Source: an uncultured Gammaproteobacteria bacterium
GTDB taxonomy: Bacteria; Patescibacteriota; Microgenomatia; 0-14-0-10-38-17
Length of the DNA: 64,000 bases
Assembly: GCA_964348895.1 (NCBI GenBank)
Contig: CAYGEH010000001.1
Coordinates: forward strand, 246,610-310,609
Direction: 5' to 3'
The notes beneath the pieces are model-generated. The model was given only the letters and a program-made list of their open reading frames with translations. It was not told the origin of the DNA and made no database searches. Each line of letters starts with the position of its first letter. Positions within the stretch are counted from its first letter, which is position 1. Below are positions 1-54,819 of the stretch, piece after piece. The translations under genes and the position numbers were made by a program.

Positions 1-2621
1 GCTACTCCCGCAAGTGTTGTCGTAACTCCCGTGTGCCTAACTTCGGCCGTAGGAACTCCCGTTCCCGTGTGTTTTCGGGGAAGATTAGCCGCCGACACCA
101 ATGTACCTAAAGAAGCGGCTGTCACTCTGCGCAAGGTTATTGGAATATAGCCGGGAGCTGTAAGAGCTGCGTTTCGCTTTGATTTAATTCCAATTCGCCT
201 GACAACATAGTTTGTGTTTGAGCCAACAGGATTAAAGAGAGTGGCGTAGACATAGTTAATACTAAGACTACCAGTAACAGGATTTGTAGTCATAAGATAT
301 TCTCTTTGCGAAGCGGGGGTACTGGCAAAAGCAACTTCTTCCCACTCAACAAGCATTTTTATCCGAATGGCAGTGCTAGTATTAACCTCTTGTCCAAGCG
401 CAAACCCTTCGCCCGGTTGTAAAATAATTCGTTCGTCAGTTTCAAAGAGAATTTCTCGATGGCCACTAATTGCTGGAGCCACTGCGGTTCCTGCCGCACC
501 TGGTGTTTCTATGTTAATAAAGTTGGCGTCTATCGTTTGCGCGTAGGTGTTGGCAACACCATTAAGCCGAATATCCATCGCGCTGTTTGCCGTTAGACTA
601 TGTTTTCGGGGAATGTCGGCCGCGACAATTTGAGTTCCCCCAGAGGCTGCAGTCGTACGCCTTAAGCGCAAAGGAATATAGGTGGCTGCAGCAGTTGCAT
701 CCACTCTCACTGCCACTCGTTTGACAATGGCTGTCCTGCCCGAAGCTGAGGGATTAAAGAATGAGGTGTGATTACGAGCACCGCCAGTCTGTCCAGGCAC
801 TGAGCCAATGTCTATCAAATACTCGTTTCGACTTGACGGAGCGGTCACCTCTTCGTCCCACTCAATTAGTATTTTCACAAAATGGTTAGCATTTCCAGCC
901 AGATAATTTATATAAAACCCCAGACCCTCACCTTCTCGCAAAATTAAATTCTCATTTTCGCCAAAAACAATTTCACGATGACCAATAATCTGCCCAATTG
1001 CCCCCGCACCATTGGCTTTGAATATGCCGGAGCCAGATGCAACACCAGCGGCAATACTGCGGTGCCCAACATAGGTCGTGGTGATCGCAGTTGCACAAGT
1101 TGATCCACACCAGCGCCACTGCATTGCCGAATTTCCTGTCCCAGTATGTTTTTTAGGAATATCCGCGGCGGCAATAAGTATGCCAGCAGAGGCCGCGCTG
1201 ATGCGCTGAAAATTCCAATCGGAATATGCTGCCGCCCCATCAGCGTCCACACGGATGACAAGACGCTTTACCACCGCCGTTCTGCCTGAACCAGTCGGAT
1301 TAAAAAAAGTGTGAAAAGTGGTACCAAGAACTCCTAACACTTCGGTCCGATTCGAAGCAAAAATGTACTCGCCCCGTGAAGCGGGCGTACTCCCCGAGGC
1401 AACCTCCTGCCACTCTATAATCATTCGATTAATCTGGGCTGTGCTGCCGGACGCTTCTGCAATAAGCGCTATTCCCTCGTTTGGTTGAAGAATGAGTTTT
1501 TCGTCGTTAGCGTGAAGATTAAGCTCCATAAAGCCGTGCGACTGTCCAGCGGCGCCACAGGGGGTAACATGACCGAGCCGACTATCAGCACTCCCCACCA
1601 GGGTTACAGTCACTCCAGTATGCCGTATATCCATAGCACTATTTGGGCTTCCAGTGTGTTTTCGGGGAATATCTGAACCCAACACCTGCGAGGCACCCGA
1701 GGCTGCAGAGGTCCGCCTAATAACAACATTATTAGCATAAACTGCGCCCGCAAGACAGGTCTCGCTGCCAAACCAAATTCGCTTAACAATCGCAGTTCTG
1801 CCAGAAGCGCCTGGATTGAAAAAAGAATTATAAACATAATTAGTACCGGCGGTGTTCTCTACTCGGGGAAAGGCAAAGAGAAATTCGCCTTGGGCTGTAG
1901 GCGCAACCGCAACCTCTTGCCACTCGACAGACATCCGTATGCGCTGATTCGCATTCCCAGCCGCCTCCTGATAAAGGGCTATTCCCTCACCCGGCTGAAG
2001 AATAAGTTGTTCGTCGCTAGTGCCAAAGGTAATTTCTCGGTAGCTATGAAACTCCCCAATTGCGCCAGGCATCGCCTGACCCAAAATCCGTGAATTAGTA
2101 ACTCCAACCCAAGTAACCGTCACTCCAGTGTGTCGCACCGTCATCACTGGATTTGTCGAGCCGCTATTTTTCTTGGGAATATTGGCCGCCACCACTTCTG
2201 TTCCTAGCGAAGAAGCGCTAATTCGCCTAACGGTCAAATTAACATAGTTTGCCGCCGCCACCGCATTGGCCCGAACCGCAATCCGCTTAACCACCGCTGT
2301 TCTTCCTGAACCACCAGGGTTAAAAAAAGCGGCGTAAACATAATTAGCGGCGGTTGAACCAGCTATTGGTCCAACATCAATCATATATTCCAGTTCTGCT
2401 GGATCAAGCGCAGCTTGAACCGAACGCGAACTTAAACGAAAATTATCAACTACATTTGTATCTTGGCGGGCCAAATAAGTCTTATCCACAATGTTTTCTC
2501 CTCTAATCGCATCCCTGCCAATCCGAAAGACTAGGTTAATTGCCACTAAACCAACATCGGCCGTTAATAATAAAACTACAAAAGCAATAACAGAAATTTT
2601 TTTAACGAAGGTTGGCAACAT
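1..2621 (-). CDS. Large secreted/surface tandem-repeat protein (5' portion; gene continues past window start). N-terminal signal-anchor MLPTFVKKISVIAFVVLLLTA followed by at least 5 degenerate repeats of about 175 aa
   Basis: Manual minus-strand translation from the ATG at 2621 (AGGAG RBS 10 nt upstream) shows no stop codon down to position 1. Recurring motifs each repeat: FFNPxxSGRTAxVKR, DIPRKHTG, HREIxFGxxExLILQPGEG, xEWxEV. DNA repeat period is about 520-540 nt (FFNP motifs near 2327, 1815, 1300, 760, 235). Absent from the ORF track only because there is no in-window stop. Confidence 0.6.
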   Translation of the reverse strand, partial: MLPTFVKKISVIAFVVLLLTADVGLVAINLVFRIGRDAIRGENIVDKTYLARQDTNVVDNFRLSSRSVQAALDPAELEYMIDVGPIAGSTAANYVYAAFFNPGGSGRTAVVKRIAVRANAVAAANYVNLTVRRISASSLGTEVVAANIPKKNSGSTNPVMTVRHTGVTVTWVGVTNSRILGQAMPGAIGEFHSYREITFGTSDEQLILQPGEGIALYQEAAGNANQRIRMSVEWQEVAVAPTAQGEFLFAFPRVENTAGTNYVYNSFFNPGASGRTAIVKRIWFGSETCLAGAVYANNVVIRRTSAASGASQVLGSDIPRKHTGSPNSAMDIRHTGVTVTLVGSADSRLGHVTPCGAAGQSHGFMELNLHANDEKLILQPNEGIALIAEASGSTAQINRMIIEWQEVASGSTPASRGEYIFASNRTEVLGVLGTTFHTFFNPTGSGRTAVVKRLVIRVDADGAAAYSDWNFQRISAASAGILIAAADIPKKHTGTGNSAMQWRWCGSTCATAITTTYVGHRSIAAGVASGSGIFKANGAGAIGQIIGHREIVFGENENLILREGEGLGFYINYLAGNANHFVKILIEWDEEVTAPSSRNEYLIDIGSVPGQTGGARNHTSFFNPSASGRTAIVKRVAVRVDATAAATYIPLRLRRTTAASGGTQIVAADIPRKHSLTANSAMDIRLNGVANTYAQTIDANFINIETPGAAGTAVAPAISGHREILFETDERIILQPGEGFALGQEVNTSTAIRIKMLVEWEEVAFASTPASQREYLMTTNPVTGSLSINYVYATLFNPVGSNTNYVVRRIGIKSKRNAALTAPGYIPITLRRVTAASLGTLVSAANLPRKHTGTGVPTAEVRHTGVTTTLAGV

Positions 2622-3603
2622 AGTTATATATCTCCTCTGAAATAGCGGTAAAAAGAGCCTTGTGATCTAGGGCTTTTTGAGCGGCGCCAGGTTTCTCTTG
2701 AATCATAACAGTAAGAAGATACTGACGGCGAGGTAGATAAACAATACCAGAATTTGTCCAGACCTGATTGTCTGTTCTGGTTCCAGTCTTGTGTGCAAAA
2801 GAAGTGTTTTCGGGTAAACCAAGGGCAAGATGTTCGCGAGGCGAATCTAAAAGAAGCTGTAAAATTTTTTGCGAATATTCAGGGGAAAGATAGGTTGCAT
2901 TATAAAGTGAACGAAAAAAAACAGAATAATTCTTAACTGTCATTCGATTGTCTAGGCCTGCACTCGCCGGAGATAATCTTAAGGTCTCCAGTATTTCGTT
3001 AAGACCTAGATGAACAAACACTTCTTCAAGTTCACTATTATTGAGGTTTCGTAAAAATACAAAATGGGCGGTATTATCAGAATTAACTAAAGATTCTCTA
3101 AATAGCCGCTCGATTGAAATTCGGGTCCCATTGGGCTCACGATAAAGATCACCAAACTGACTATCTTTATCTTCGTCAAAAATAACTAACTCATTCTCCA
3201 AGCGCCAATCGCCTCTCTCAACTTTCTTCATTGCTGCCATTGCCACTGGAATTTTAATTAGCGAGGCGGGCCAAATTCTTTCATTCTCGTTTATATTAAT
3301 GTTTACTCCAGTGGGCAGATACTCAAAATAAATGGCGACAAGATAATCGTCTCTTTTAGCGTAAGCATTTAACAAAGAATCGCGCAATGGCTGAAAACCA
3401 ACCAAATTATCTTGCTGATCAGCCACAGCAACAGCAGGACTTAAAGAAGAATAGCGCTTAAGCACATCTTGGTTTTCATTGTCGGGAAAAAACATGGTCG
3501 CAAGCAAAAAACCAACAGCAAGACCAATCCCTCCCCCAACCCCCATTAAAAGCACGGCAGAAAGCTTAGGTGTTTGCTGTAATTTAAATATGGTCTTCTT
3601 CAT
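2602..3603 (-). CDS. Class A beta-lactamase-fold serine hydrolase (penicillin-binding/beta-lactamase-like), membrane-anchored
   Basis: SxxK (ASLIK), SDN (VNSDNTA) and KTG (AHKTGT) motifs in canonical order. N-terminal TM. 20-nt overlap with the downstream repeat-protein start. Confidence 0.7.
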   Translation of the reverse strand: MKKTIFKLQQTPKLSAVLLMGVGGGIGLAVGFLLATMFFPDNENQDVLKRYSSLSPAVAVADQQDNLVGFQPLRDSLLNAYAKRDDYLVAIYFEYLPTGVNININENERIWPASLIKIPVAMAAMKKVERGDWRLENELVIFDEDKDSQFGDLYREPNGTRISIERLFRESLVNSDNTAHFVFLRNLNNSELEEVFVHLGLNEILETLRLSPASAGLDNRMTVKNYSVFFRSLYNATYLSPEYSQKILQLLLDSPREHLALGLPENTSFAHKTGTRTDNQVWTNSGIVYLPRRQYLLTVMIQEKPGAAQKALDHKALFTAISEEIYNYVANLR

Positions 3604-4426: not shown

Positions 4427-4502
4427 TGGTGCGCCTGCTTGGATTTGAACCAAGGACATCTACCTTATAAGAGTAGCGCTCTAACCACTGAGCTACAGGC
4501 GC
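4427..4502 (-). tRNA. tRNA-Ile with anticodon UAU (AUA-decoding), 76 nt with encoded CCA
   Basis: Hand-folded cloverleaf: 7-bp acceptor stem GCGCCTG/CAGGCGC, D-stem GCTC/GAGC, anticodon stem CTACT/GGTAG, loop CTTATAA (U33, anticodon TAT, A37), T-stem CTTGG/CCAAG with TTCAAAT loop, discriminator A, CCA. Strong similarity to canonical tRNA-Ile(GAU) except at position 34. Confidence 0.8.
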
Positions 4503-4563: not shown

Positions 4564-6894
4564 TTATAGTCTTGCTCTTTTGGCAATTTCTGCTCCGACC
4601 AAAGCCTTATCTCGACCATATTTCAAGCGAGAAAGCTCAACAATGTTTTTGGCTAAATCCCAATTGTCCAGGGTTTTTTCTTTTACCATGTCTTTAGTTA
4701 AATCAAGAGAAAAAGGTGGCACAGGTTCGTTATTAACAATTGTTTTGATATAAGCATTATATCTTTCAATATTAAGAAGATCGTTTTCGGAAAAGTCTGG
4801 CTGAAACTCATGTTGAAGATAAGAAGCATCGGCCACTCCTACCCGAAAAGAAACCAAGGTGCCAACATTACCAAAAACAGCATTCTTAACTTCTTCTTCC
4901 ATTTGGCCAATAAACTGATTTGCCACTGTTAGGTTAAGACGATACTTTCGTGCTTCCGATAAAATTTGGGCAAAGTCTGGAGTGGCAAAGTTCTGAAATT
5001 CATCAACATAGAGATAAAAATCGCGTCGATTGTCTTCTGACACATCTTGTCGGCTCATTGCCGCAATTAACAATTTTGGCACTAAAACTAGGCCTAAAAA
5101 AGAAGAGTTCTCTTCCCCAATCTTGCCCTTAGCCAAATTAATCAACAAAATCTTGCCCTCGTCCATTGCTTGTCTGAAATCAAAAGCAGAGCGGGACTGA
5201 CCGATAATATTGCGCATCGCGGCGTCAGTTACAAATCGGCCAAACTTAGAAACAATGTAGTCTAACACTTCACTTTTGTGAAAATCACTGGTTTGGGCAA
5301 TTTGATCCGTCCAATATCGTCTAACCATTGGGTCGCTTACTTTGGGTAAAAGCTCCCGCACATACGAAGCATCAGTTAAGACCCGAACCACCTCAACAAA
5401 AGTTGCTCCAGGCTCCGTCATTACTGTTAACATCGCGTTTCTAATTGCGTGTTCAAAGCGAGGACCGATAATCCCAGTCTTATAGGGATCGTAAAGCTTA
5501 TACATTAGGTTAATAATTGAGGAGGCGACAAAATTTTTCTGTTCCTCAGTATAGGTTTCCAACAAATTAAGCCCCATTGGCCGACTAGTATCAGAAGGAT
5601 CAAAATAAATAACATCCTCGGCTCGTTCTGGGGGGATTCTGGGCAAAATTTTCTCAATTGTATCGTGGGGATCAATAAAACAAACCCCCTTACCCTCTTC
5701 AATGTCTTGAACAATCATTTGTTTTAACAGCTCTGATTTTCCCGTTCCAGTTTTTCCAATAATATAAATGTGACGGCGCCGATCGTCTTCGGTTAAAGAA
5801 ACCGGTCTTATTTCTCCTCGATAAACACTCCGACCCAAGTAAAGACCAGTGCGAGAAACCTCGGGAGGAACTGGGGCCCTTTTAGCGTTAAGCCAAGCAA
5901 TATTTGGGGTTATCACTGTTTTGTTGGGAAAATGAAAAATAGTTGCTAGTTCTTCTGAGTTAAGAATAATTTTATTGCCAAATCGTGACCAAAGTGGCCA
6001 ATAGCGATAAATAAAATTAATCATAAAGCCTCTTTTCCACCAAACCTTCTTAGTTTTAAGTCCGTTTTGATCCGAATTAAATTGCGATAGAGCGCTTTTA
6101 ATTGAAGATAAATGAGCCTTAGCCTGATCAATGTTTTTCGAACAAACAACCACCCTTAGCTCCACCTCAAACCCAGGTTTACTACATTTAATTTCAATTT
6201 TCTCTAAAGCCTTGCTATCAATTTTGAATTCCGCCTTTTCTGGATCAGCCTCTTTCTTTTTGGTAGAAGACAGAAATGATCTACCTAGTTTCTGCCACTT
6301 ACTGCCAAGGGGGGAAACTAAAATTTGAATCGCAATTCCTTCACCTTCAACCAGTTTAGACAGGGTTGAGGTTAAAGAAGATAAGGGATCAACAGAGAAA
6401 TCTTGATAAGTTTTAATCGGATAAAAGGGTGAGCTTTTAAACTCAAAGGCGGAGTAAACCACTTTTCCCTCTTTGGAAAAAATATTATATTCATCAATTC
6501 TCTTAATCACCGCCGAAGAATAAAGACCATAAATTTGTCGCTCTAAAAGATCAATTTTATTTTGAGGAATAACAAAATAAAACTTAATGCTGTCTGGAGT
6601 CCCAACAATTTCAGCGCTAAAAAAAAATTTTGGTTTTAGGTTTCCCCCCGTTTTTAGTGAGTGAAGATTGGCAAATAATTGTTCGGCGGCGTCAATTTTA
6701 ATTTCGTTTTCTCGAGGCAAAATTACCTGAAGCAAAACTAAGTCTAGTGAATATTTTTCTCGATTTCTTTCTCGCCAAAGTAAAAACAAAGCATAGCCCA
6801 GCAAAAATAAAACCCCCAAGCAGAGCAGAGTTATCACTCCTAAAACAAGAGAGCGAATTACTAAATAAACAAGATCGTTTAGGTTTTCAATCAT
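4564..6894 (-). CDS. Membrane-anchored P-loop ATPase of the TraD/TraG/VirD4 type IV secretion coupling-protein family (TrwB_AAD_bind-like)
   Basis: N-terminal TM helices, Walker A IIGKTGTGKSE, Walker B-like YLYVDEFQNF. Size and architecture typical of T4SS/conjugative coupling proteins. Confidence 0.55.
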   Translation of the reverse strand: MIENLNDLVYLVIRSLVLGVITLLCLGVLFLLGYALFLLWRERNREKYSLDLVLLQVILPRENEIKIDAAEQLFANLHSLKTGGNLKPKFFFSAEIVGTPDSIKFYFVIPQNKIDLLERQIYGLYSSAVIKRIDEYNIFSKEGKVVYSAFEFKSSPFYPIKTYQDFSVDPLSSLTSTLSKLVEGEGIAIQILVSPLGSKWQKLGRSFLSSTKKKEADPEKAEFKIDSKALEKIEIKCSKPGFEVELRVVVCSKNIDQAKAHLSSIKSALSQFNSDQNGLKTKKVWWKRGFMINFIYRYWPLWSRFGNKIILNSEELATIFHFPNKTVITPNIAWLNAKRAPVPPEVSRTGLYLGRSVYRGEIRPVSLTEDDRRRHIYIIGKTGTGKSELLKQMIVQDIEEGKGVCFIDPHDTIEKILPRIPPERAEDVIYFDPSDTSRPMGLNLLETYTEEQKNFVASSIINLMYKLYDPYKTGIIGPRFEHAIRNAMLTVMTEPGATFVEVVRVLTDASYVRELLPKVSDPMVRRYWTDQIAQTSDFHKSEVLDYIVSKFGRFVTDAAMRNIIGQSRSAFDFRQAMDEGKILLINLAKGKIGEENSSFLGLVLVPKLLIAAMSRQDVSEDNRRDFYLYVDEFQNFATPDFAQILSEARKYRLNLTVANQFIGQMEEEVKNAVFGNVGTLVSFRVGVADASYLQHEFQPDFSENDLLNIERYNAYIKTIVNNEPVPPFSLDLTKDMVKEKTLDNWDLAKNIVELSRLKYGRDKALVGAEIAKRARL

Positions 6895-6904
6895 TAGTGG
6901 TTTT

Positions 6905-7282
6905 TTAACTCTTAAACCCTATTTCTGATTCTAATAGCTTTATCAACCTTTTCGACCATTCCGCTAGCCAGCGCCAAGATTCCTCTAGCGACTCTTTTAG
7001 GCCGAAATGGTATTCGTCTAGGGTTAGTGGTAAAACAATTTTTGGTTTTTGAATTTGGGGAGAAGTAATTAGCGTTTGACCTGTTTGATCGTCTAAGACT
7101 TGATTTTTTAAAAAATAGTCCTCTTTTTCGACTCTTTCCAGGTATCCTTCTAGCTCAGGTGAAAGCTTCGGGGGCTGGCCAAGCTCAACAATATCTGCTT
7201 TTTCTTCTTGTCTTTCTGTTGAAGAAAATCGACCTGAATCCTTTTCTTTATTGGAAGATGTGTTTGGATTATTAGGTATCAT
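6905..7282 (-). CDS. Hypothetical protein, immediately upstream of and co-oriented with the coupling-protein-like ATPase
   Basis: 125-aa ORF, 10-nt gap to the next gene, no motif. Confidence 0.35.
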   Translation of the reverse strand: MIPNNPNTSSNKEKDSGRFSSTERQEEKADIVELGQPPKLSPELEGYLERVEKEDYFLKNQVLDDQTGQTLITSPQIQKPKIVLPLTLDEYHFGLKESLEESWRWLAEWSKRLIKLLESEIGFKS

Positions 7283-7384
7283 CTTTTGATAACATTCTAG
7301 CTTATCTTTCCAAGAAGATAAAGAGATTTTTCTTTTTATTTGACTTAAGAGCCTAGAACAAAAGATTTCTAAATCACAATTATT

Positions 7385-8113
7385 TTAAAAATCACCGCTA
7401 GTTTTAGGCAGAATTGATTGTGCCACCACCAGTAAAGATTCTAGCTTCTGACTACTAAAGGGAGATAAATTGTTGAACTTTGCCTTAAGACAATTTTGGG
7501 GTAAAAATTTTTGTAATCGCCAAACTAGGCTGTTGGGGTCGCCTCCGTTTTCTAGGGTCAAATCTTTTATTTCTTCAGCTAAAACAATCAGATTCTTTTT
7601 GTTGTGAATTGTTGGCACAAGAGTAGTTCGCAATTGATAGTTTAGCCCACTTGTAATAACCAGCCCCAGCGACTGGGCAACTTTTTCATAACTAATTTCT
7701 GTCATTAAGGCGTAGTTTTCTTTGTTTGATTTTATATCTAGGGCAACAAAATCAAGCAATTTACCACGAATCAGGGCCTCTAAAACCTCTGGTCTTCCCC
7801 CATTAGTATCAATTTTAAGCAAAAATCCCAAATCTTTGATTTTACGACAAAAGGAAATTAGATCTGGTTGAAGGGTTGGCTCTCCTCCAGTAAGACAAAC
7901 TCCGTCTAAAATTTTTTGACGCTTATTTAAAAATTCAAAGAAATCTTTTTCTTTAATTTCAACCAAAGAAGACTGAGCAAATCTTTTGCGAGAAACCAAG
8001 TCTTTATTGTGACAATAAGGACAGAAAAAATTACAACCAACAGTAAAAACAGCACAAGCAACTCTGTTGGGATAGTCAACTAGAGTTGTTTTTTGAAGAC
8101 CACCCAAAATCAC
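7385..8113 (-). CDS. nrdG: Anaerobic ribonucleoside-triphosphate reductase activating protein (radical SAM)
   Basis: CNFFCPYCHN CxxxCxxC radical-SAM cluster motif near the N-terminus. Sits downstream of nrdD. Confidence 0.85.
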   Translation of the reverse strand: MILGGLQKTTLVDYPNRVACAVFTVGCNFFCPYCHNKDLVSRKRFAQSSLVEIKEKDFFEFLNKRQKILDGVCLTGGEPTLQPDLISFCRKIKDLGFLLKIDTNGGRPEVLEALIRGKLLDFVALDIKSNKENYALMTEISYEKVAQSLGLVITSGLNYQLRTTLVPTIHNKKNLIVLAEEIKDLTLENGGDPNSLVWRLQKFLPQNCLKAKFNNLSPFSSQKLESLLVVAQSILPKTSGDF

Positions 8114-48504: not shown

Positions 48505-49260
48505 ATGTCTAGAAGAATAGAATCGGCTTCAGGCTTGGGTGAAACACAAGATCCGTTTCGTTTGCCCCTTTCAAGTTCTGATTTAGCTAGGCAACTGCCT
48601 GAACAATCTTGGCCTAATTCTCTCAAATCGTCTTCTAATTACGAAACAGCAAGAACTCTTTTTTGTAGAACAAGTCTTTCTCCTGAAGAAGGCGACGGAG
48701 AAAGTAAAGCGTTGGGCAAGACTGGTCAAGCCCTTGAAGGTTTGGGCATTCGTCAAAGAGTAGAAGAGCTTTTTATTTTTTATTTGACTCTCTTTGGTGA
48801 TGAGACAGACAGGCTAAATTCGAAAGGGAAAATAAGACCCAATAATCAATCCATCGAACAAATAATAAGCGCTGTTTGTTCTAGCTATGGGACTAAACAG
48901 AATTCTGACCTTATTATCGCGGATGGGGCAACCATTAACACCCCTAGAAATGGGGTTCTTCAAGACAACGCTTCCCCAAATCAACCTATTCCAGAGATTT
49001 ACTATCGTGATCCAGGAACATTTATTGCTGAATGCTTAAAACAACTTGATGAAAGCGGGGTCCTTCTGGCCAAAGAAAGAGCTATAATCACTAAATGCTT
49101 TTGTTCTTTAGTTGGGTCTCTCGTCAACGAAAAATTCAAAATTTCTAAAAAACCTGAAAGCCAAGTAGCACATTTGGGAACTGTTCCTGGTCGTCGATCA
49201 CACACAAATGGTGGTCAAAGACAAAATGGCACTGGATTTCGTAGAAATCCTTCTTTGTAG
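48505..49260 (+). CDS. Hypothetical protein containing an internal block homologous to the duplicated 411-aa secreted protein
   Basis: ADGATINTPRNGVLQDNASPNQ versus AAGGATINTFRNGVLQDNTSPDTW, with about 85% nucleotide identity over about 60 nt. Confidence 0.35.
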   Translation: MSRRIESASGLGETQDPFRLPLSSSDLARQLPEQSWPNSLKSSSNYETARTLFCRTSLSPEEGDGESKALGKTGQALEGLGIRQRVEELFIFYLTLFGDETDRLNSKGKIRPNNQSIEQIISAVCSSYGTKQNSDLIIADGATINTPRNGVLQDNASPNQPIPEIYYRDPGTFIAECLKQLDESGVLLAKERAIITKCFCSLVGSLVNEKFKISKKPESQVAHLGTVPGRRSHTNGGQRQNGTGFRRNPSL

Positions 49261-49747: not shown

Positions 49748-49897
49748 TGCTTGACTTTGATTTTAGCACAAAAATAATTAATCTTAAAAAGAATTCTTTA
49801 CCTGCCCAACTTTATTCTCACTCGTTTAAAGACGAAGCTGTCTTGAAAATTTTTGGAGCGAAGCAGATCTTCTGTTTGCCCTTCCCTTTCTTCTCTA

Positions 49898-51016
49898 TTA
49901 CTCTTTCTGTTCCGAAGTTCTAATTTGTCTTAATTCTTCCTCTAAAACCTTCTTTTCGTCTAATTGGCGCTTGATAGAGAGAATAAGTAAGATAACAATT
50001 GCCAGAGCCAGTAAAACAGCCAAGATTATCTTCCAAGGCATAACCCAAAAGAACAGGGTGTGGGTAATGGTTTGACCGTCTCCATAAAGAGCGCTTAGGG
50101 TGGCCGAGTAGCGACCAAAGTGCCATCTACCACCAAATTCGGCTTCATATTGTCTTTGGGCTTGGGGGAGAATGTTCTGTCTTTCAAGTCGAACTAGACT
50201 GGGTTGCTCTAAACCCCAAGTATTTCTCACTTCTATCTCTAGGATAGGCTTGATGTGAACTGTGCTTAAATTTAGGATTCGGGCCACAAAGGGAACTGGG
50301 CCGTATTCAAATAAAACTCTGGGGGTAGAGAATTCGGTAATATTAGCGCTGTATTCTACCGGACCCTCAACTGTAACCAGGTTTAGTGAGGCGACATTAA
50401 GATTAACAAACGCCCCAGTAGTGATTTGATCAGTTTGACCAACTAAGTCAGTCTCGCCAGATAAAAGAGCGGTGACGGCAAAGTAAAATCCTCCCGGTTC
50501 GGCATTTTGGGGAATAACAATAGTATAGGCAACGTCAACTTGCTCTCCTGCTTCTAGGGTAACTCTATTGGGATTAATTACTACCCAGTTGTGAGAATCG
50601 GGTAGAGGGTCGTCGTCTACTTCAACACCGCCAGTATCACCAGAGGCAATAAAAGGTGAAGCCCGTAAAACTAGGGTTACCGTTCTATCGCTTTGATTAA
50701 GAAGCGACATCTGATAAGAGTTGGCGCTTCCTCGAGGTAACTCAAGTTCTCTTACTGGTGGACTAATAGTGATTAAACTACTTAACCCTCCCTGCTGTTC
50801 TGGGGCGGCTACTGGCCGAGGCTCAGCATAGGGAGTCATTGTCGCCTCTTTGGTAACTTCAACCACCTCTCTGGTTCTGGCTGGTTGATTGGTCTCTGTT
50901 TCTTCTTGAGCGAGGGTGACTTTAGTCAAAGCAAAGCCTAAGGCTAGGAAGCCAAGCAGAATGATTACTAGGGCAGTTTTTTTAATCATTTGTTTTTTTA
51001 ATAACGACCAGTACAA
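49898..51016 (-). CDS. Surface protein, copy 1: cleavable N-terminal signal, beta-rich ectodomain, single C-terminal TM anchor and charged tail (KRQLDEKKVLEEELRQIRTSEQKE)
   Basis: 372 aa; 19-nt overlap with the upstream 411-aa gene (translational coupling). Architecture of type-I surface-anchored proteins. Confidence 0.6.
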   Translation of the reverse strand: MYWSLLKKQMIKKTALVIILLGFLALGFALTKVTLAQEETETNQPARTREVVEVTKEATMTPYAEPRPVAAPEQQGGLSSLITISPPVRELELPRGSANSYQMSLLNQSDRTVTLVLRASPFIASGDTGGVEVDDDPLPDSHNWVVINPNRVTLEAGEQVDVAYTIVIPQNAEPGGFYFAVTALLSGETDLVGQTDQITTGAFVNLNVASLNLVTVEGPVEYSANITEFSTPRVLFEYGPVPFVARILNLSTVHIKPILEIEVRNTWGLEQPSLVRLERQNILPQAQRQYEAEFGGRWHFGRYSATLSALYGDGQTITHTLFFWVMPWKIILAVLLALAIVILLILSIKRQLDEKKVLEEELRQIRTSEQKE

Positions 51017-52233
51017 AGGTAAGAGACAACATTAGAATAAACGCCGGCTTCCTGTAGTCCAGAAATCTCAACCCGATAAACAATGTAGGCCTGGCCGTTA
51101 GGATCAGCTCCACCAACACCATTGGCTGGAGCGTTGTGGCTCAAGATAGCCTCGTAAAGATTTGATAGCCCAGCAAACCTGGCTCCAGTAAAGCGGTTAC
51201 CGGCTCCAGCTCCAGCAAGGTCGTCAAGGGCAAGATCAGTTGTTCCATAACCAAGGTGACCATAGGTGTCAAGGGAGCCAGGGGTACCCAAAGGAGCAGC
51301 CCAAGTGTCAGGAGAAGTGTTGTCTTGGAGAACTCCATTTCTAAAAGTGTTAATGGTTGCCCCGCCCGCGGCAGTAAGATCAGAATACTGTCTGACGGCA
51401 AAGTGGAATCCATTGGCCCCATTAGTGCTAACCCTGATCATCTGTCCTGATTGAGAGGAGGCGCCGCTGTTGATAACTCCAAAGGGAATCGCGGTTGCTG
51501 TCGTGGCAAATCCGGCTGCTCCATAAGTGTTGCCCAGGGTGTTAAAGTTTTCGGCGGGGGCAACTCCAGCCACCTGACAAGAGAGAGTCGCCTTTACTTC
51601 GGCGGTAATGGTAACTGCGTCAATAATGGCCGCTCTCACCGAGGCAGTGTCTATGGTCACGGCAGAAGCGTTCTGGGTTTGATATTCAATTAAGTAGGTA
51701 TCGGCAGTCCCCGCCGCAGCCACCTTGGTTGGATTCTGAACATCGTTTAAGCCACCAGCCGCTCCATCCCCCATGGTGATTTCAACAAATTGGTTGGCAG
51801 CAAGACCAGAGCAGGCTCCTGAAGGAGCCAGGGTTAGGGTAATTATTTCATCAGCATTGTTAATGGCCACTCCAACTACACCCGCCGCTGGAGTGGCAGC
51901 AAGGGTACAAGTGGTCGGGCTAGACATATCAGCGTTAACACTGTGTCTCATCGTCATATCGGTAAAAGAATGGCCTACTCCCAAGTCAAATGGAGCTCCG
52001 GCTCCAGGAGCAAGGTCGATGACAATTCTGCCTGAGGTGGGAACAACAAGGGTGGTTCTAAAATAGTGGACGTGTCTAGTGTTGGCAAAAAGAGGGCGAG
52101 AATCAGAGATTGTAATTTGGGCGTTTCTCAAGCTACTAAAAGAGGCACTAAGGTTAGGGTAGGTTAAGAACAGGACCAGAGTCAGCAAGAAAAACAAGCT
52201 TTTTTTAGAGAAGAAGTTTTTGATCATTGGCAA
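50998..52233 (-). CDS. Secreted Ala/Gly/Thr-rich protein, copy 1 (signal peptide; GC-rich relative to the window)
   Basis: 411 aa, N-terminal signal MPMIKNFFSKKSLFFLLTLVLFLTYPNLSASF, low-complexity A/G/T-rich body. Confidence 0.6.
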   Translation of the reverse strand: MPMIKNFFSKKSLFFLLTLVLFLTYPNLSASFSSLRNAQITISDSRPLFANTRHVHYFRTTLVVPTSGRIVIDLAPGAGAPFDLGVGHSFTDMTMRHSVNADMSSPTTCTLAATPAAGVVGVAINNADEIITLTLAPSGACSGLAANQFVEITMGDGAAGGLNDVQNPTKVAAAGTADTYLIEYQTQNASAVTIDTASVRAAIIDAVTITAEVKATLSCQVAGVAPAENFNTLGNTYGAAGFATTATAIPFGVINSGASSQSGQMIRVSTNGANGFHFAVRQYSDLTAAGGATINTFRNGVLQDNTSPDTWAAPLGTPGSLDTYGHLGYGTTDLALDDLAGAGAGNRFTGARFAGLSNLYEAILSHNAPANGVGGADPNGQAYIVYRVEISGLQEAGVYSNVVSYLCTGRY

Positions 52234-52331
52234 GAGGTTTTTTGCTTGTTTATTAATGCTTCCTACAAGTTAAGAATAAACAAGTTTTGGGGTGTTTGTC
52301 AAGGGGTTTTTCTTTCCCCCTTCTTCTCTGG

Positions 52332-53450
52332 TTACTCTTTCTGTTCCGAAGTTCTAATTTGTCTTAATTCTTCCTCTAAAACCTTCTTTTCGTCTAATTG
52401 GCGCTTGATAGAGAGAATAAGTAAGATAACAATTGCCAGAGCCAGTAAAACAGCCAAGATTATCTTCCAAGGCATAACCCAAAAGAACAGGGTGTGGGTA
52501 ATGGTTTGACCGTCTCCATAAAGAGCGCTTAGGGTGGCCGAGTAGCGACCAAAGTGCCATCTACCACCAAATTCGGCTTCATATTGTCTTTGGGCTTGGG
52601 GGAGAATGTTCTGTCTTTCAAGTCGAACTAGACTGGGTTGCTCTAAACCCCAAGTATTTCTCACTTCTATCTCTAGGATAGGCTTGATGTGAACTGTGCT
52701 TAAATTTAGGATTCGGGCCACAAAGGGAACTGGGCCGTATTCAAATAAAACTCTGGGGGTAGAGAATTCGGTAATATTAGCGCTGTATTCTACCGGACCC
52801 TCAACTGTAACCAGGTTTAGTGAGGCGACATTAAGATTAACAAACGCCCCAGTAGTGATTTGATCAGTTTGACCAACTAAGTCAGTCTCGCCAGATAAAA
52901 GAGCGGTGACGGCAAAGTAAAATCCTCCCGGTTCGGCATTTTGGGGAATAACAATAGTATAGGCAACGTCAACTTGCTCTCCTGCTTCTAGGGTAACTCT
53001 ATTGGGATTAATTACTACCCAGTTGTGAGAATCGGGTAGAGGGTCGTCGTCTACTTCAACACCGCCAGTATCACCAGAGGCAATAAAAGGTGAAGCCCGT
53101 AAAACTAGGGTTACCGTTCTATCGCTTTGATTAAGAAGCGACATCTGATAAGAGTTGGCGCTTCCTCGAGGTAACTCAAGTTCTCTTACTGGTGGACTAA
53201 TAGTGATTAAACTACTTAACCCTCCCTGCTGTTCTGGGGCGGCTACTGGCCGAGGCTCAGCATAGGGAGTCATTGTCGCCTCTTTGGTAACTTCAACCAC
53301 CTCTCTGGTTCTGGCTGGTTGATTGGTCTCTGTTTCTTCTTGAGCGAGGGTGACTTTAGTCAAAGCAAAGCCTAAGGCTAGGAAGCCAAGCAGAATGATT
53401 ACTAGGGCAGTTTTTTTAATCATTTGTTTTTTTAATAACGACCAGTACAA
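52332..53450 (-). CDS. Surface protein with N-signal and C-terminal TM anchor, copy 2 (identical to 49898-51016)
   Basis: Identical translation. Confidence 0.6.
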   Translation of the reverse strand: MYWSLLKKQMIKKTALVIILLGFLALGFALTKVTLAQEETETNQPARTREVVEVTKEATMTPYAEPRPVAAPEQQGGLSSLITISPPVRELELPRGSANSYQMSLLNQSDRTVTLVLRASPFIASGDTGGVEVDDDPLPDSHNWVVINPNRVTLEAGEQVDVAYTIVIPQNAEPGGFYFAVTALLSGETDLVGQTDQITTGAFVNLNVASLNLVTVEGPVEYSANITEFSTPRVLFEYGPVPFVARILNLSTVHIKPILEIEVRNTWGLEQPSLVRLERQNILPQAQRQYEAEFGGRWHFGRYSATLSALYGDGQTITHTLFFWVMPWKIILAVLLALAIVILLILSIKRQLDEKKVLEEELRQIRTSEQKE

Positions 53451-54667
53451 AGGTAAGAGACAACATTAGAATAAACGCCGGCTTCCTGTAGTCCAGAAAT
53501 CTCAACCCGATAAACAATGTAGGCCTGGCCGTTAGGATCAGCTCCACCAACACCATTGGCTGGAGCGTTGTGGCTCAAGATAGCCTCGTAAAGATTTGAT
53601 AGCCCAGCAAACCTGGCTCCAGTAAAGCGGTTACCGGCTCCAGCTCCAGCAAGGTCGTCAAGGGCAAGATCAGTTGTTCCATAACCAAGGTGACCATAGG
53701 TGTCAAGGGAGCCAGGGGTACCCAAAGGAGCAGCCCAAGTGTCAGGAGAAGTGTTGTCTTGGAGAACTCCATTTCTAAAAGTGTTAATGGTTGCCCCGCC
53801 CGCGGCAGTAAGATCAGAATACTGTCTGACGGCAAAGTGGAATCCATTGGCCCCATTAGTGCTAACCCTGATCATCTGTCCTGATTGAGAGGAGGCGCCG
53901 CTGTTGATAACTCCAAAGGGAATCGCGGTTGCTGTCGTGGCAAATCCGGCTGCTCCATAAGTGTTGCCCAGGGTGTTAAAGTTTTCGGCGGGGGCAACTC
54001 CAGCCACCTGACAAGAGAGAGTCGCCTTTACTTCGGCGGTAATGGTAACTGCGTCAATAATGGCCGCTCTCACCGAGGCAGTGTCTATGGTCACGGCAGA
54101 AGCGTTCTGGGTTTGATATTCAATTAAGTAGGTATCGGCAGTCCCCGCCGCAGCCACCTTGGTTGGATTCTGAACATCGTTTAAGCCACCAGCCGCTCCA
54201 TCCCCCATGGTGATTTCAACAAATTGGTTGGCAGCAAGACCAGAGCAGGCTCCTGAAGGAGCCAGGGTTAGGGTAATTATTTCATCAGCATTGTTAATGG
54301 CCACTCCAACTACACCCGCCGCTGGAGTGGCAGCAAGGGTACAAGTGGTCGGGCTAGACATATCAGCGTTAACACTGTGTCTCATCGTCATATCGGTAAA
54401 AGAATGGCCTACTCCCAAGTCAAATGGAGCTCCGGCTCCAGGAGCAAGGTCGATGACAATTCTGCCTGAGGTGGGAACAACAAGGGTGGTTCTAAAATAG
54501 TGGACGTGTCTAGTGTTGGCAAAAAGAGGGCGAGAATCAGAGATTGTAATTTGGGCGTTTCTCAAGCTACTAAAAGAGGCACTAAGGTTAGGGTAGGTTA
54601 AGAACAGGACCAGAGTCAGCAAGAAAAACAAGCTTTTTTTAGAGAAGAAGTTTTTGATCATTGGCAA
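53432..54667 (-). CDS. Secreted Ala/Gly/Thr-rich protein, copy 2 (identical to 50998-52233)
   Basis: Identical translation. Confidence 0.6.
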   Translation of the reverse strand: MPMIKNFFSKKSLFFLLTLVLFLTYPNLSASFSSLRNAQITISDSRPLFANTRHVHYFRTTLVVPTSGRIVIDLAPGAGAPFDLGVGHSFTDMTMRHSVNADMSSPTTCTLAATPAAGVVGVAINNADEIITLTLAPSGACSGLAANQFVEITMGDGAAGGLNDVQNPTKVAAAGTADTYLIEYQTQNASAVTIDTASVRAAIIDAVTITAEVKATLSCQVAGVAPAENFNTLGNTYGAAGFATTATAIPFGVINSGASSQSGQMIRVSTNGANGFHFAVRQYSDLTAAGGATINTFRNGVLQDNTSPDTWAAPLGTPGSLDTYGHLGYGTTDLALDDLAGAGAGNRFTGARFAGLSNLYEAILSHNAPANGVGGADPNGQAYIVYRVEISGLQEAGVYSNVVSYLCTGRY

Positions 54668-54819
54668 GAGGTTTTTTGCTTGTTTATTAATGCTTCCTAC
54701 AAGTTAAGAATAAACAAGTTTTGGGGTGTTTGTCAAGCATCAACTGAATATTTATGCCCAGTGGATGAGAAATTTTAACAATTGCTTACATTTAAAAAGA
54801 TTTCTTATTTCTGATCCAA

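Follow-up and report, generated by a model that had tools for sequence, protein, structure and literature searches.

The closest described systems to the locus considered here are the WxL/WxLIP (DUF916-DUF3324, "Csc") clusters, which are known from Firmicutes and combine one or more WxLIPs with two or more WxL proteins in a span of four genes (Hassan et al., 2023; PMC10599100). The locus lies in a 64-kb stretch of DNA (hereafter, the window) and consists of a two-gene cassette whose host is a Shapirobacteria-like Patescibacterium rather than a member of the Firmicutes. Its protein B resembles a WxLIP, whereas the partner, protein A, carries neither a WxL domain nor WxL motifs. Chaperone-usher pili offer a second comparison, with their PapD-like chaperone and subunit pairs, but in the cassette B is membrane-anchored, the host is of the monoderm type and no usher gene lies adjacent. 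A third is given by the MSCRAMM-type and pilin Ig-fold adhesins of Gram-positive bacteria (ClfA, SdrD, FnBPA, the AgI/II C-domains and sortase pilins), which match the cassette proteins in their generic Ig-like fold, with TM-scores that are low because the domain arrangement differs. However, sequence similarity to these adhesins is absent, and inspection of the protein A translation found neither an LPXTG sorting signal nor a C-terminal TM segment.

The cassette is present twice. When each base was compared with the base 2434 nt downstream, positions 49898-52303 equalled positions 52332-54737 in one unbroken identical run of 2406 nt, for which a chance origin is not possible; the direct head-to-tail repeat with a 2434-nt period and no internal mismatch, as put forward in the original prediction, is thereby confirmed. 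The left edge falls at 49898 and not at 49883, and the junction between the copies, previously given as 12-13 nt, is a spacer of 28 nt. No further long direct repeats were found within the window. Each unit forms a small minus-strand operon, composed of a promoter-like site, gene A and gene B, and the features of the locus are the following:

52332-54737, minus strand: upstream cassette copy in gene orientation (the "Y position"), adjoining the native upstream flank, with promoter-like site, gene A and gene B.
49898-52303, minus strand: downstream cassette copy (the "X position"), preceded by the spacer; exact repeat.
52304-52331, minus strand: spacer, or duplication junction, of 28 nt; plus strand gggtttttctttcccccttcttctctgg, gene strand CCAGAGAAGAAGGGGGAAAGAAAAACCC.
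49870-49897, minus strand: native sequence 3' of gene B; alignments and the comparison with relative L001 show its homology to the spacer.
54707-54736, minus strand: promoter-like site of copy 2 (TTGACA-18-TATTCT), 10/12 match, with a sequence identical in L001.
52273-52302, minus strand: promoter-like site of copy 1 (TTGACA-18-TATTCT), 10/12 match.
53432-54661, minus strand: gene A copy 2, 409 aa plus stop; secreted two-domain Ig-like, adhesin/pilin-like protein.
50998-52227, minus strand: gene A copy 1, identical to copy 2.
52332-53423, minus strand: gene B copy 2, 363 aa plus stop; WxLIP-like, with a signal peptide, a disordered linker, two Ig-like domains, a C-terminal TM helix and a charged tail.
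49898-50989, minus strand: gene B copy 1, identical to copy 2.

The expectation that each copy keeps its own promoter-like site held, with TTGACA at 54736-54731 and 52302-52297 followed by an 18-nt gap and TATTCT, and no terminator-like site was found between the two copies. The products had been read as 411 and 372 aa; these are mechanical TTG ORFs, and the likely proteins start at ATG and measure 409 and 363 aa, as called in relatives. The exact gene B product is also encoded on an independent contig (L034) that ends at the gene B stop codon.

A collinear relative, L001, with 97.4% nucleotide identity, carries one cassette copy between the same neighbour genes, and the duplicated unit maps by BLAST to its positions 5675-8105. 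Thus, the proposal of a copy-number-variable locus stands between lineages only. The spacer, which is unique in the window when up to four mismatches are allowed, matches the L001 downstream flank at 21 of 25 positions without gaps and departs from the native flank at 4-6 positions. These alignments identify it as a diverged duplicate of the sequence natively found immediately 3' of gene B, and 49870-49897 marks where the 2.43-kb unit that was originally duplicated ends on its 3' side. Since the spacer and the native flank differ at these positions, the duplication is not brand new. The unit extends from the -35 hexamer to about 25-28 nt beyond the gene B stop codon, and its duplication probably arose after the split from this closest sampled, single-copy relative.

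The unit could be thought a mobile element (an IS or a transposon) present in two adjacent copies, given its sharp boundaries and a G+C content (about 0.47-0.49, against a background of 0.37) above that of its surroundings; GC3 is 0.45 in gene A and 0.38 in gene B, compared with 0.26-0.33 in the neighbouring genes. However, Pfam and NCBIfam searches found no transposase or integrase domain in either ORF, inspection of the unit ends (CTTGACAAAC... and ...AAAGAGTAA) and flanks revealed neither terminal inverted repeats nor a target-site duplication, L001 carries a single copy in a syntenic position with the same neighbours, and the family is a conserved chromosomal surface-protein cluster. With transposase, inverted repeats and target-site duplication all missing, an IS or transposon identity was rejected, and we regard it as hardly credible.

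Independent short-read assemblies of the same strain allow the junction to be judged apart from the window. The flanks are shared exactly, with L035 and L041 being 100% identical to the window over 10,723 and 9,293 nt, respectively. A MEGAHIT contig from sample ERZ27247794 (L038) joins the cassette end, the identical 28-nt spacer and the cassette start, and the same arrangement is found on the 641-nt L039 (ERZ27247798 and three further samples), so that the identical spacer junction occurs in independent assemblies from at least five samples. Because this spacer joins cassette end to start in independent MEGAHIT assemblies, the tandem junction is real and not an artefact. Other contigs stop where a graph loop is expected to break: L035, L036 and L037 begin with exactly the final 141 nt (= k) of the cassette, L034 stops exactly at the TAA of gene B, and L041 (Logan, k=31) stops 30 nt inside the cassette. 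Scans of JGI metagenomes for the junction pattern and the cassette promoter sequence gave no match. Directly adjacent copies in the same orientation, a novel junction and its reproducibility in independent data are the marks of a tandem (head-to-tail) segmental duplication, and the predicted duplication of a two-gene cassette is in this respect borne out. Perfect repeats are a well-known reason for caution in metagenome assemblies, and the close relative L001 is single-copy, which would fit a duplication created wholly by assembly error in a genome that likewise has one copy. Against this, the unique spacer is identical across the independent assemblies of at least five samples and MEGAHIT and Logan contigs alike break base-exactly at the two edges of the repeat, making such an error very improbable.

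The number of copies is a separate question, since loop turns are not countable from short-read graphs. L038 measures 2575 nt (141+28+2406), and its first 141 nt equal its last 141 nt. It thus closes on itself after exactly one period (2434 + 141 overlap) and was assembled separately from the flanks; in its sample the flank contig (L042) reaches only 924 nt, hinting at a higher depth of the loop than of its connections. An array of at least three units, or an excised 2434-bp circle coexisting with one or more chromosomal copies, could produce this pattern, the two copies of the window then being the assembler's choice. Yet replication, integrase and transposase genes are absent from the cassette, and no more than two 5' haplotypes occur, each tied to its own junction type, as fits two copies; we give this alternative a low probability.

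In the same contigs the copies differ. Phased differences at 19 sites in the first 331 nt distinguish the flank-linked from the spacer-linked copies of the independent same-strain assemblies: the flank-linked copy (L040/L042) carries C, C, C and G at cassette coordinates 89, 90, 169 and 186, and the spacer-linked copy (L038/L039) carries a 15-SNP patch at coordinates 281-331. Among their effects are six amino-acid replacements in protein A, within a variable loop at residues 69-85, giving the two loop variants IVIDLAPGAGAPFDLGVGH and IFINLNPLGGAPFDLGVAH. In the window, both copies are of the spacer type at 89-186 and of the flank type at 281-331, and the window cassette is thus a mosaic of two 5' haplotypes, written identically twice. 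L040 differs from the window by four mismatches in all, every one inside the cassette. Taken as a property of the genome, the "zero divergence" of the original prediction is contradicted by these 19 sites. Among the three explanations it had offered for the identity, an assembly artefact comes closest, as a description that fits the identity but not the duplication itself.

Collapsed or homogenised near-identical tandem repeats occur in graph-based or polished metagenome assemblies. The window resembles such cases in holding two byte-identical copies that mix haplotypes kept apart by independent assemblies, and in that other assemblers break exactly at the repeat edges; it differs from a plain collapsed-repeat artefact in that the underlying duplication is real and only the identity, possibly also the copy number, is artefactual. 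We consider it likely that a 2.43-kb operon has truly been duplicated in tandem, to at least two copies that are near-identical in reality, the perfect identity having most likely been made by assembly. In the organism, the copies would be near-identical paralogs and not perfect ones. The assembler may have resolved the variant bubbles between them singly to one consensus edge, which would then have been written twice on traversal of the loop; alternatively, both copies may have been polished with the same mixed read pile. Either course would leave an identical mosaic haplotype in both copies.

Alternatively, the copies might be truly 100% identical in the sequenced strain, through a very recent duplication or through gene conversion to one mosaic, with the differing copies belonging to sister sub-populations. 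The window sequence itself agrees with this reading, as does L034 (ERZ27247823), which equals the window cassette at all but one site across coordinates 332-2406; the mosaic patches, with the L001 allele in several of them, also show the locus to be subject to recombination or conversion. Conversion would nevertheless have to have occurred several times and in both directions, the flank-linked copy gaining spacer-type 89-186 and the spacer-linked copy gaining flank-type 281-331, and 20 kb of flank show no substitution relative to the other assemblies. Moreover, L040 ends at coordinate 472 (331+141) in ERZ27247823, a sample with long contigs identical to the window, so that a second path differing up to site 331 is required. 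A very recent duplication is further opposed by the 4-6 differences between spacer and native flank. True identity is in our judgement unlikely, and assembly-made identity of near-identical copies remains the preferred explanation.

Further polymorphic patches, at cassette coordinates 736, 862-958, 1360-1381 and 2196, are not phased to a copy. Alleles beyond coordinate 331 could be strain polymorphism and not copy differences, because the nearest phased site is over 141 nt away and bubbles are merged by MEGAHIT. Two sources of variation were considered and set aside. DGR-type mutagenesis of the 281-331 patch was rejected, as the substitutions affect every base, most of them going from GC to AT, and show no adenine specificity. 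An 81-nt A-like relic in a 251-aa ORF is not supported as the conversion source of the 862-958 patch, as it fits the alleles about equally (67/81 for the window, 68/81 for L038 and 69/81 for L001). The contig collection, in which this strain is represented by many samples, has no record of the window-type full-length 409-aa A, and exact-product look-ups with the 409-, 411- and 396-aa forms found no contig. The sole record with the window-type A sequence is an NCBI 396-aa call on a 691-kb contig, and protein A as deposited is probably chimeric, combining two paralogs. The locus is in this sense a caution that a 2.4-kb tandem repeat which is byte-perfect in a near-complete genome recovered from metagenomes can stand for a real duplication whose true copies probably differ; taking "zero divergence" for recent duplication or concerted evolution would mislead analyses.

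The surface-type character predicted for the products was upheld by their signal peptides, Ig-like adhesin folds and WxLIP-like membrane anchor. Protein A is secreted and adhesin-like, with two Ig-like domains and a conserved C-terminus (...SYLCTGRY), and in gene B a second Ig-like domain is followed by the C-terminal TM helix. The WxL domain (PF13731) had no match in the window protein A or 23 homologs (E<=1), nor in 26 distant A-like sequences (E<=0.1). For DUF916 (PF06030), the window's own B gave nothing at E<=0.01, its Pfam scores being sub-threshold only; 6 of 21 close B homologs match, with a best E of 4.2e-4 that is below threshold, and so do 11 of 37 distant B paralogs (best E 1.6e-8), which places homology on transitivity only. 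The second WxLIP domain (HBD, DUF3324, PF11797) was not detected in B by sequence, and PDB profile searches with A and with B gave no match. A literature search returned no report tying WxL to Patescibacteria, and the distant WxLIP link appears mildly new. By analogy with WxLIP, which holds WxL proteins in Firmicutes, B may hold A, a putative secreted Ig-fold adhesin-like subunit, at the cell surface, possibly by beta-strand complementation. Two copies would then give a higher dosage and two loop variants of a surface protein. A widespread, uncharacterised surface-protein pair linked to WxLIP/PapD-like strand-complemented assemblies could offer a lead on adhesin display by ultrasmall episymbionts.

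A single-protein scan of the genome collection found no relative, whereas an alignment-based scan of it did, and A-B pairs and A-B-B-A-B clusters occur across Patescibacteria. In this light the biology is ordinary. The tandem duplication is a young one, in a family whose paralogs are arranged as A-B-B-A-B clusters across the phylum, and the locus represents the youngest stage of a recurrent process whose diverged clusters are seen elsewhere in Patescibacteria. A bolder proposal, which we hold to be quite unlikely, is a dynamic tandem array that grows, shrinks and undergoes gene conversion and that encodes a WxLIP-like surface complex specific to Patescibacteria, with copy number and the mosaic loop variants of A shifting within populations; were it true, the episymbiont could vary a host-contact or phage-exposed surface. 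As an observation touching on such an array, one copy is present in L001 and two or more here, and L038 hints at an amplified or circular 2434-bp form. Elsewhere in the window, positions 1-2600, GC-rich, with no listed ORF and no Rfam match, were considered as a large ncRNA, but they are actually an 888-codon minus-strand open frame that leaves the window at its start.

When each base of the window was compared with the base 2434 nt downstream, a single unbroken run of 2406 identical nucleotides was obtained, in which 49898-52303 equals 52332-54737, and no further long direct repeat was detected in the 64-kb window. The exact tandem repeat at a 2434-nt period put forward in the original prediction is thus borne out, with two corrections: its left edge lies at 49898 instead of 49883, and the copies are separated by a spacer of 28 nt (52304-52331) instead of a junction of 12-13 nt. 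Within each copy, gene A is followed after 8 nt by gene B, both on the minus strand, and the predicted TTGACA on the gene strand is present in both, with TATTCT after 18 nt. If the ATG start codons annotated in relatives are used, the features are as follows:

50998-52227 and 53432-54661, minus strand, gene A, 409 aa
49898-50989 and 52332-53423, minus strand, gene B, 363 aa
54736-54707 and 52302-52273, minus strand, promoter-like TTGACA-18 nt-TATTCT at the start of each copy

No terminator-like sites were found between the two copies. The G+C content of the cassette is about 0.47-0.49 vs about 0.37 in its surroundings, and GC3 reaches 0.45 in gene A and 0.38 in gene B, compared with 0.26-0.33 in neighbouring genes.

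Same-strain contigs from independent assemblies, recovered through exact-product look-ups, show that the duplication itself is real. Three of them are identical to the window, namely L035/L037, a 279-kb MEGAHIT k141 contig from sample ERZ27247823 (100.000% over 10.7 kb), L036 (100% over 4.1 kb) and the Logan contig L041 from ERR3094290 (100% over 9.3 kb). L035, L036 and L037 open with the terminal 141 nt of the cassette, precisely k, and continue into the native downstream flank, L034 (2075 nt) terminates precisely at the gene B TAA, and L041 (k = 31) stops 30 nt inside the cassette. A cassette forming a loop would force a de Bruijn graph to branch at precisely these breakpoints. L038 (ERZ27247794) measures 2575 nt, i.e., 141 + 28 + 2406, and comprises the cassette end, the identical spacer and a full cassette; the same 141 nt stand at both of its ends, which makes it a cycle closed after one period. 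In L039 (641 nt, four samples), the cassette end is likewise joined to the identical spacer and 472 nt of cassette. Since both contain the spacer junction, the head-to-tail arrangement exists in the reads of at least five samples, and misassembly was set aside as its source. Short-read graphs look alike for two units, more units or a circular form. The L038 cycle (ENA ERZ27247794 k141_209484; 2434 nt plus the 141-nt overlap) was assembled apart from its flanks, and the flank contig of the same sample, L042, is merely 924 nt long; the loop may have a depth above that of its connections, either because the array has more than two units or because a circular form exists.

The unit can be delimited in the closest relative, L001, a 23-kb Logan contig collinear with the window at 97.4% nucleotide identity, which has one cassette between the same neighbours (an RRM protein and two small membrane proteins upstream, and a 143-aa gene downstream). 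By BLAST, the duplicated unit maps to L001 5675-8105, beginning at the C of CTTGACA and reaching about 25 nt beyond the gene B stop codon; the spacer is therefore a copy of native downstream sequence. It has diverged, agreeing with the L001 flank at 21 of 25 positions and with the window's own flank at fewer, and it occurs once in the window. Also unchanged in L001 is a perfect 10-bp inverted repeat, CTTGTTTATT-20 nt-AATAAACAAG (minus strand, 54679-54718 and 52245-52284), whose left arm CTTGTTTATT overlaps the -10 hexamer of each cassette promoter and which is a candidate dimeric-regulator operator or 5'-leader hairpin.

The zero divergence between the copies is probably not biological, as phased differences between them are found in the independent same-strain contigs. 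With the cassette numbered from the C of CTTGACA (1) to the final A of TAA (2406), L040, L042 and similar contigs, which hold the copy joined to the native upstream flank, depart from the window sequence at 89, 90, 169 and 186, and L038 and L039, which hold the spacer-linked copy, depart from it at 15 sites within 281-331. Neighbouring variants lie less than 141 nt apart, so k-mers phase these two 5' haplotypes to their own junctions, and both L040 and L039 stop at coordinate 472 (331 + 141), the first k-mer common to both haplotypes. Both window copies carry spacer-type alleles at 89-186 and flank-type alleles at 281-331, a mosaic seen in none of the independent contigs, and a window-type full-length A is recorded only as an NCBI 396-aa call on a 691-kb contig, presumably from the source genome. 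True identity of the copies appears unlikely. The mosaic could have a real origin if gene conversion acted twice in the source sample, but this would require events in both directions without any other change in 20 kb, and over 20 kb of flank the window and the independent contigs show zero differences. We favor, with fair though incomplete confidence, an artefactual origin of the identity: bubbles could have been resolved independently at a k of about 88 or less and one consensus edge then traversed twice, or both copies could have been polished with one mixed read pile, and either route would write identical mosaics. Further differences between L038 and the window occur at 736, 862-958 (13 sites), 1360-1381 (6 sites) and 2196, with the L001 allele at 12 of these sites; they are not assigned to either copy, since bubbles are merged by MEGAHIT and the distance to the phased sites exceeds k.

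The phased changes are F5P and Q37R in the flank-linked A, and V69F, D71N, A73N, G75L, A76G and G85A in the spacer-linked A, the latter group sitting in a loop with variable indels among members of the A family. Judging from these substitutions, the organism most likely produces two A variants with minor differences. Unphased changes comprise M263I, I264L and A271S in A, and A16T and K23Q in B.

The reading of the cassette products as surface-type proteins is supported. Protein A carries a signal peptide, is rich in Ala, Gly and Thr, and matched nothing in Pfam, NCBIfam or PDB sequences. AlphaFold predicts an all-beta protein of two sandwich domains (pLDDT 81), whose structural neighbours are YweA/BslA, SdrD, ClfA/B, FnBPA, AgI/II C-domains and sortase pilins, as well as the chaperone-usher tip adhesins CsuE and CfaE; these are generic Ig-fold adhesin matches. 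Neither a WxL domain nor an LPXTG motif was found in A. In the definition of Hassan et al. (PMC10599100), a WxL cluster combines one or more WxLIP with two or more WxL proteins; the same authors propose that a hairpin of WxLIP inserts into the WxL domain. Lacking a WxL domain, the window locus falls outside this definition. By analogy, the WxLIP-like B could plausibly use strand complementation to hold secreted A on the cell surface. No report of a WxLIP-like link for Patescibacteria was found in the literature search; this link is mildly new, and the overall novelty of the locus is modest.

The homologs found for A and B come from Candidatus Shapirobacteria and other Patescibacteria and are hypothetical proteins. 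Across 29 genome loci (Shapirobacteria, Microgenomates, Nomurabacteria, Saccharibacteria, Kaiserbacteria and others), B normally comes next after A, and in many of these loci the order is A-B-B-A-B, with about 25-35% identity between the paralogs. Tandem duplication of the cassette is thus a recurrent theme, of which the window represents the youngest stage. The order of diverged A-B-B-A-B paralogs is conserved in distant Patescibacteria classes (L017, L026, L030, L031, L032 and other loci), which suggests a multi-component surface assembly, uncharacterised according to Pfam and literature searches.

Elsewhere in the window, an 81-nt gene A fragment (48897-48977, plus strand) lies within a 251-aa ORF (48505-49260). 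It corresponds to cassette coordinates 913-993 (A residues about 276-307), is inverted relative to the cassette, in frame and 83-85% identical at the nucleotide level, and L001 has it too. The fragment may be what is left of an earlier inverted A copy within an otherwise unrelated hypothetical ORF. It does not account for the variant patches. Additionally, a tRNA-Ile with anticodon TAT (UAU) is located at 4427-4502 (minus strand). In most bacteria, AUA is read by a lysidine-modified CAU tRNA, so UAU tRNA-Ile is uncommon; this gene may bear on AUA decoding or tilS status in the lineage. Finally, an 888-codon stop-free frame (3-2666, minus strand) extends past the window start, has a G+C content of about 0.5 vs the 0.37 background and gave nothing significant against Pfam; it probably encodes another large, compositionally atypical protein, possibly a surface protein.
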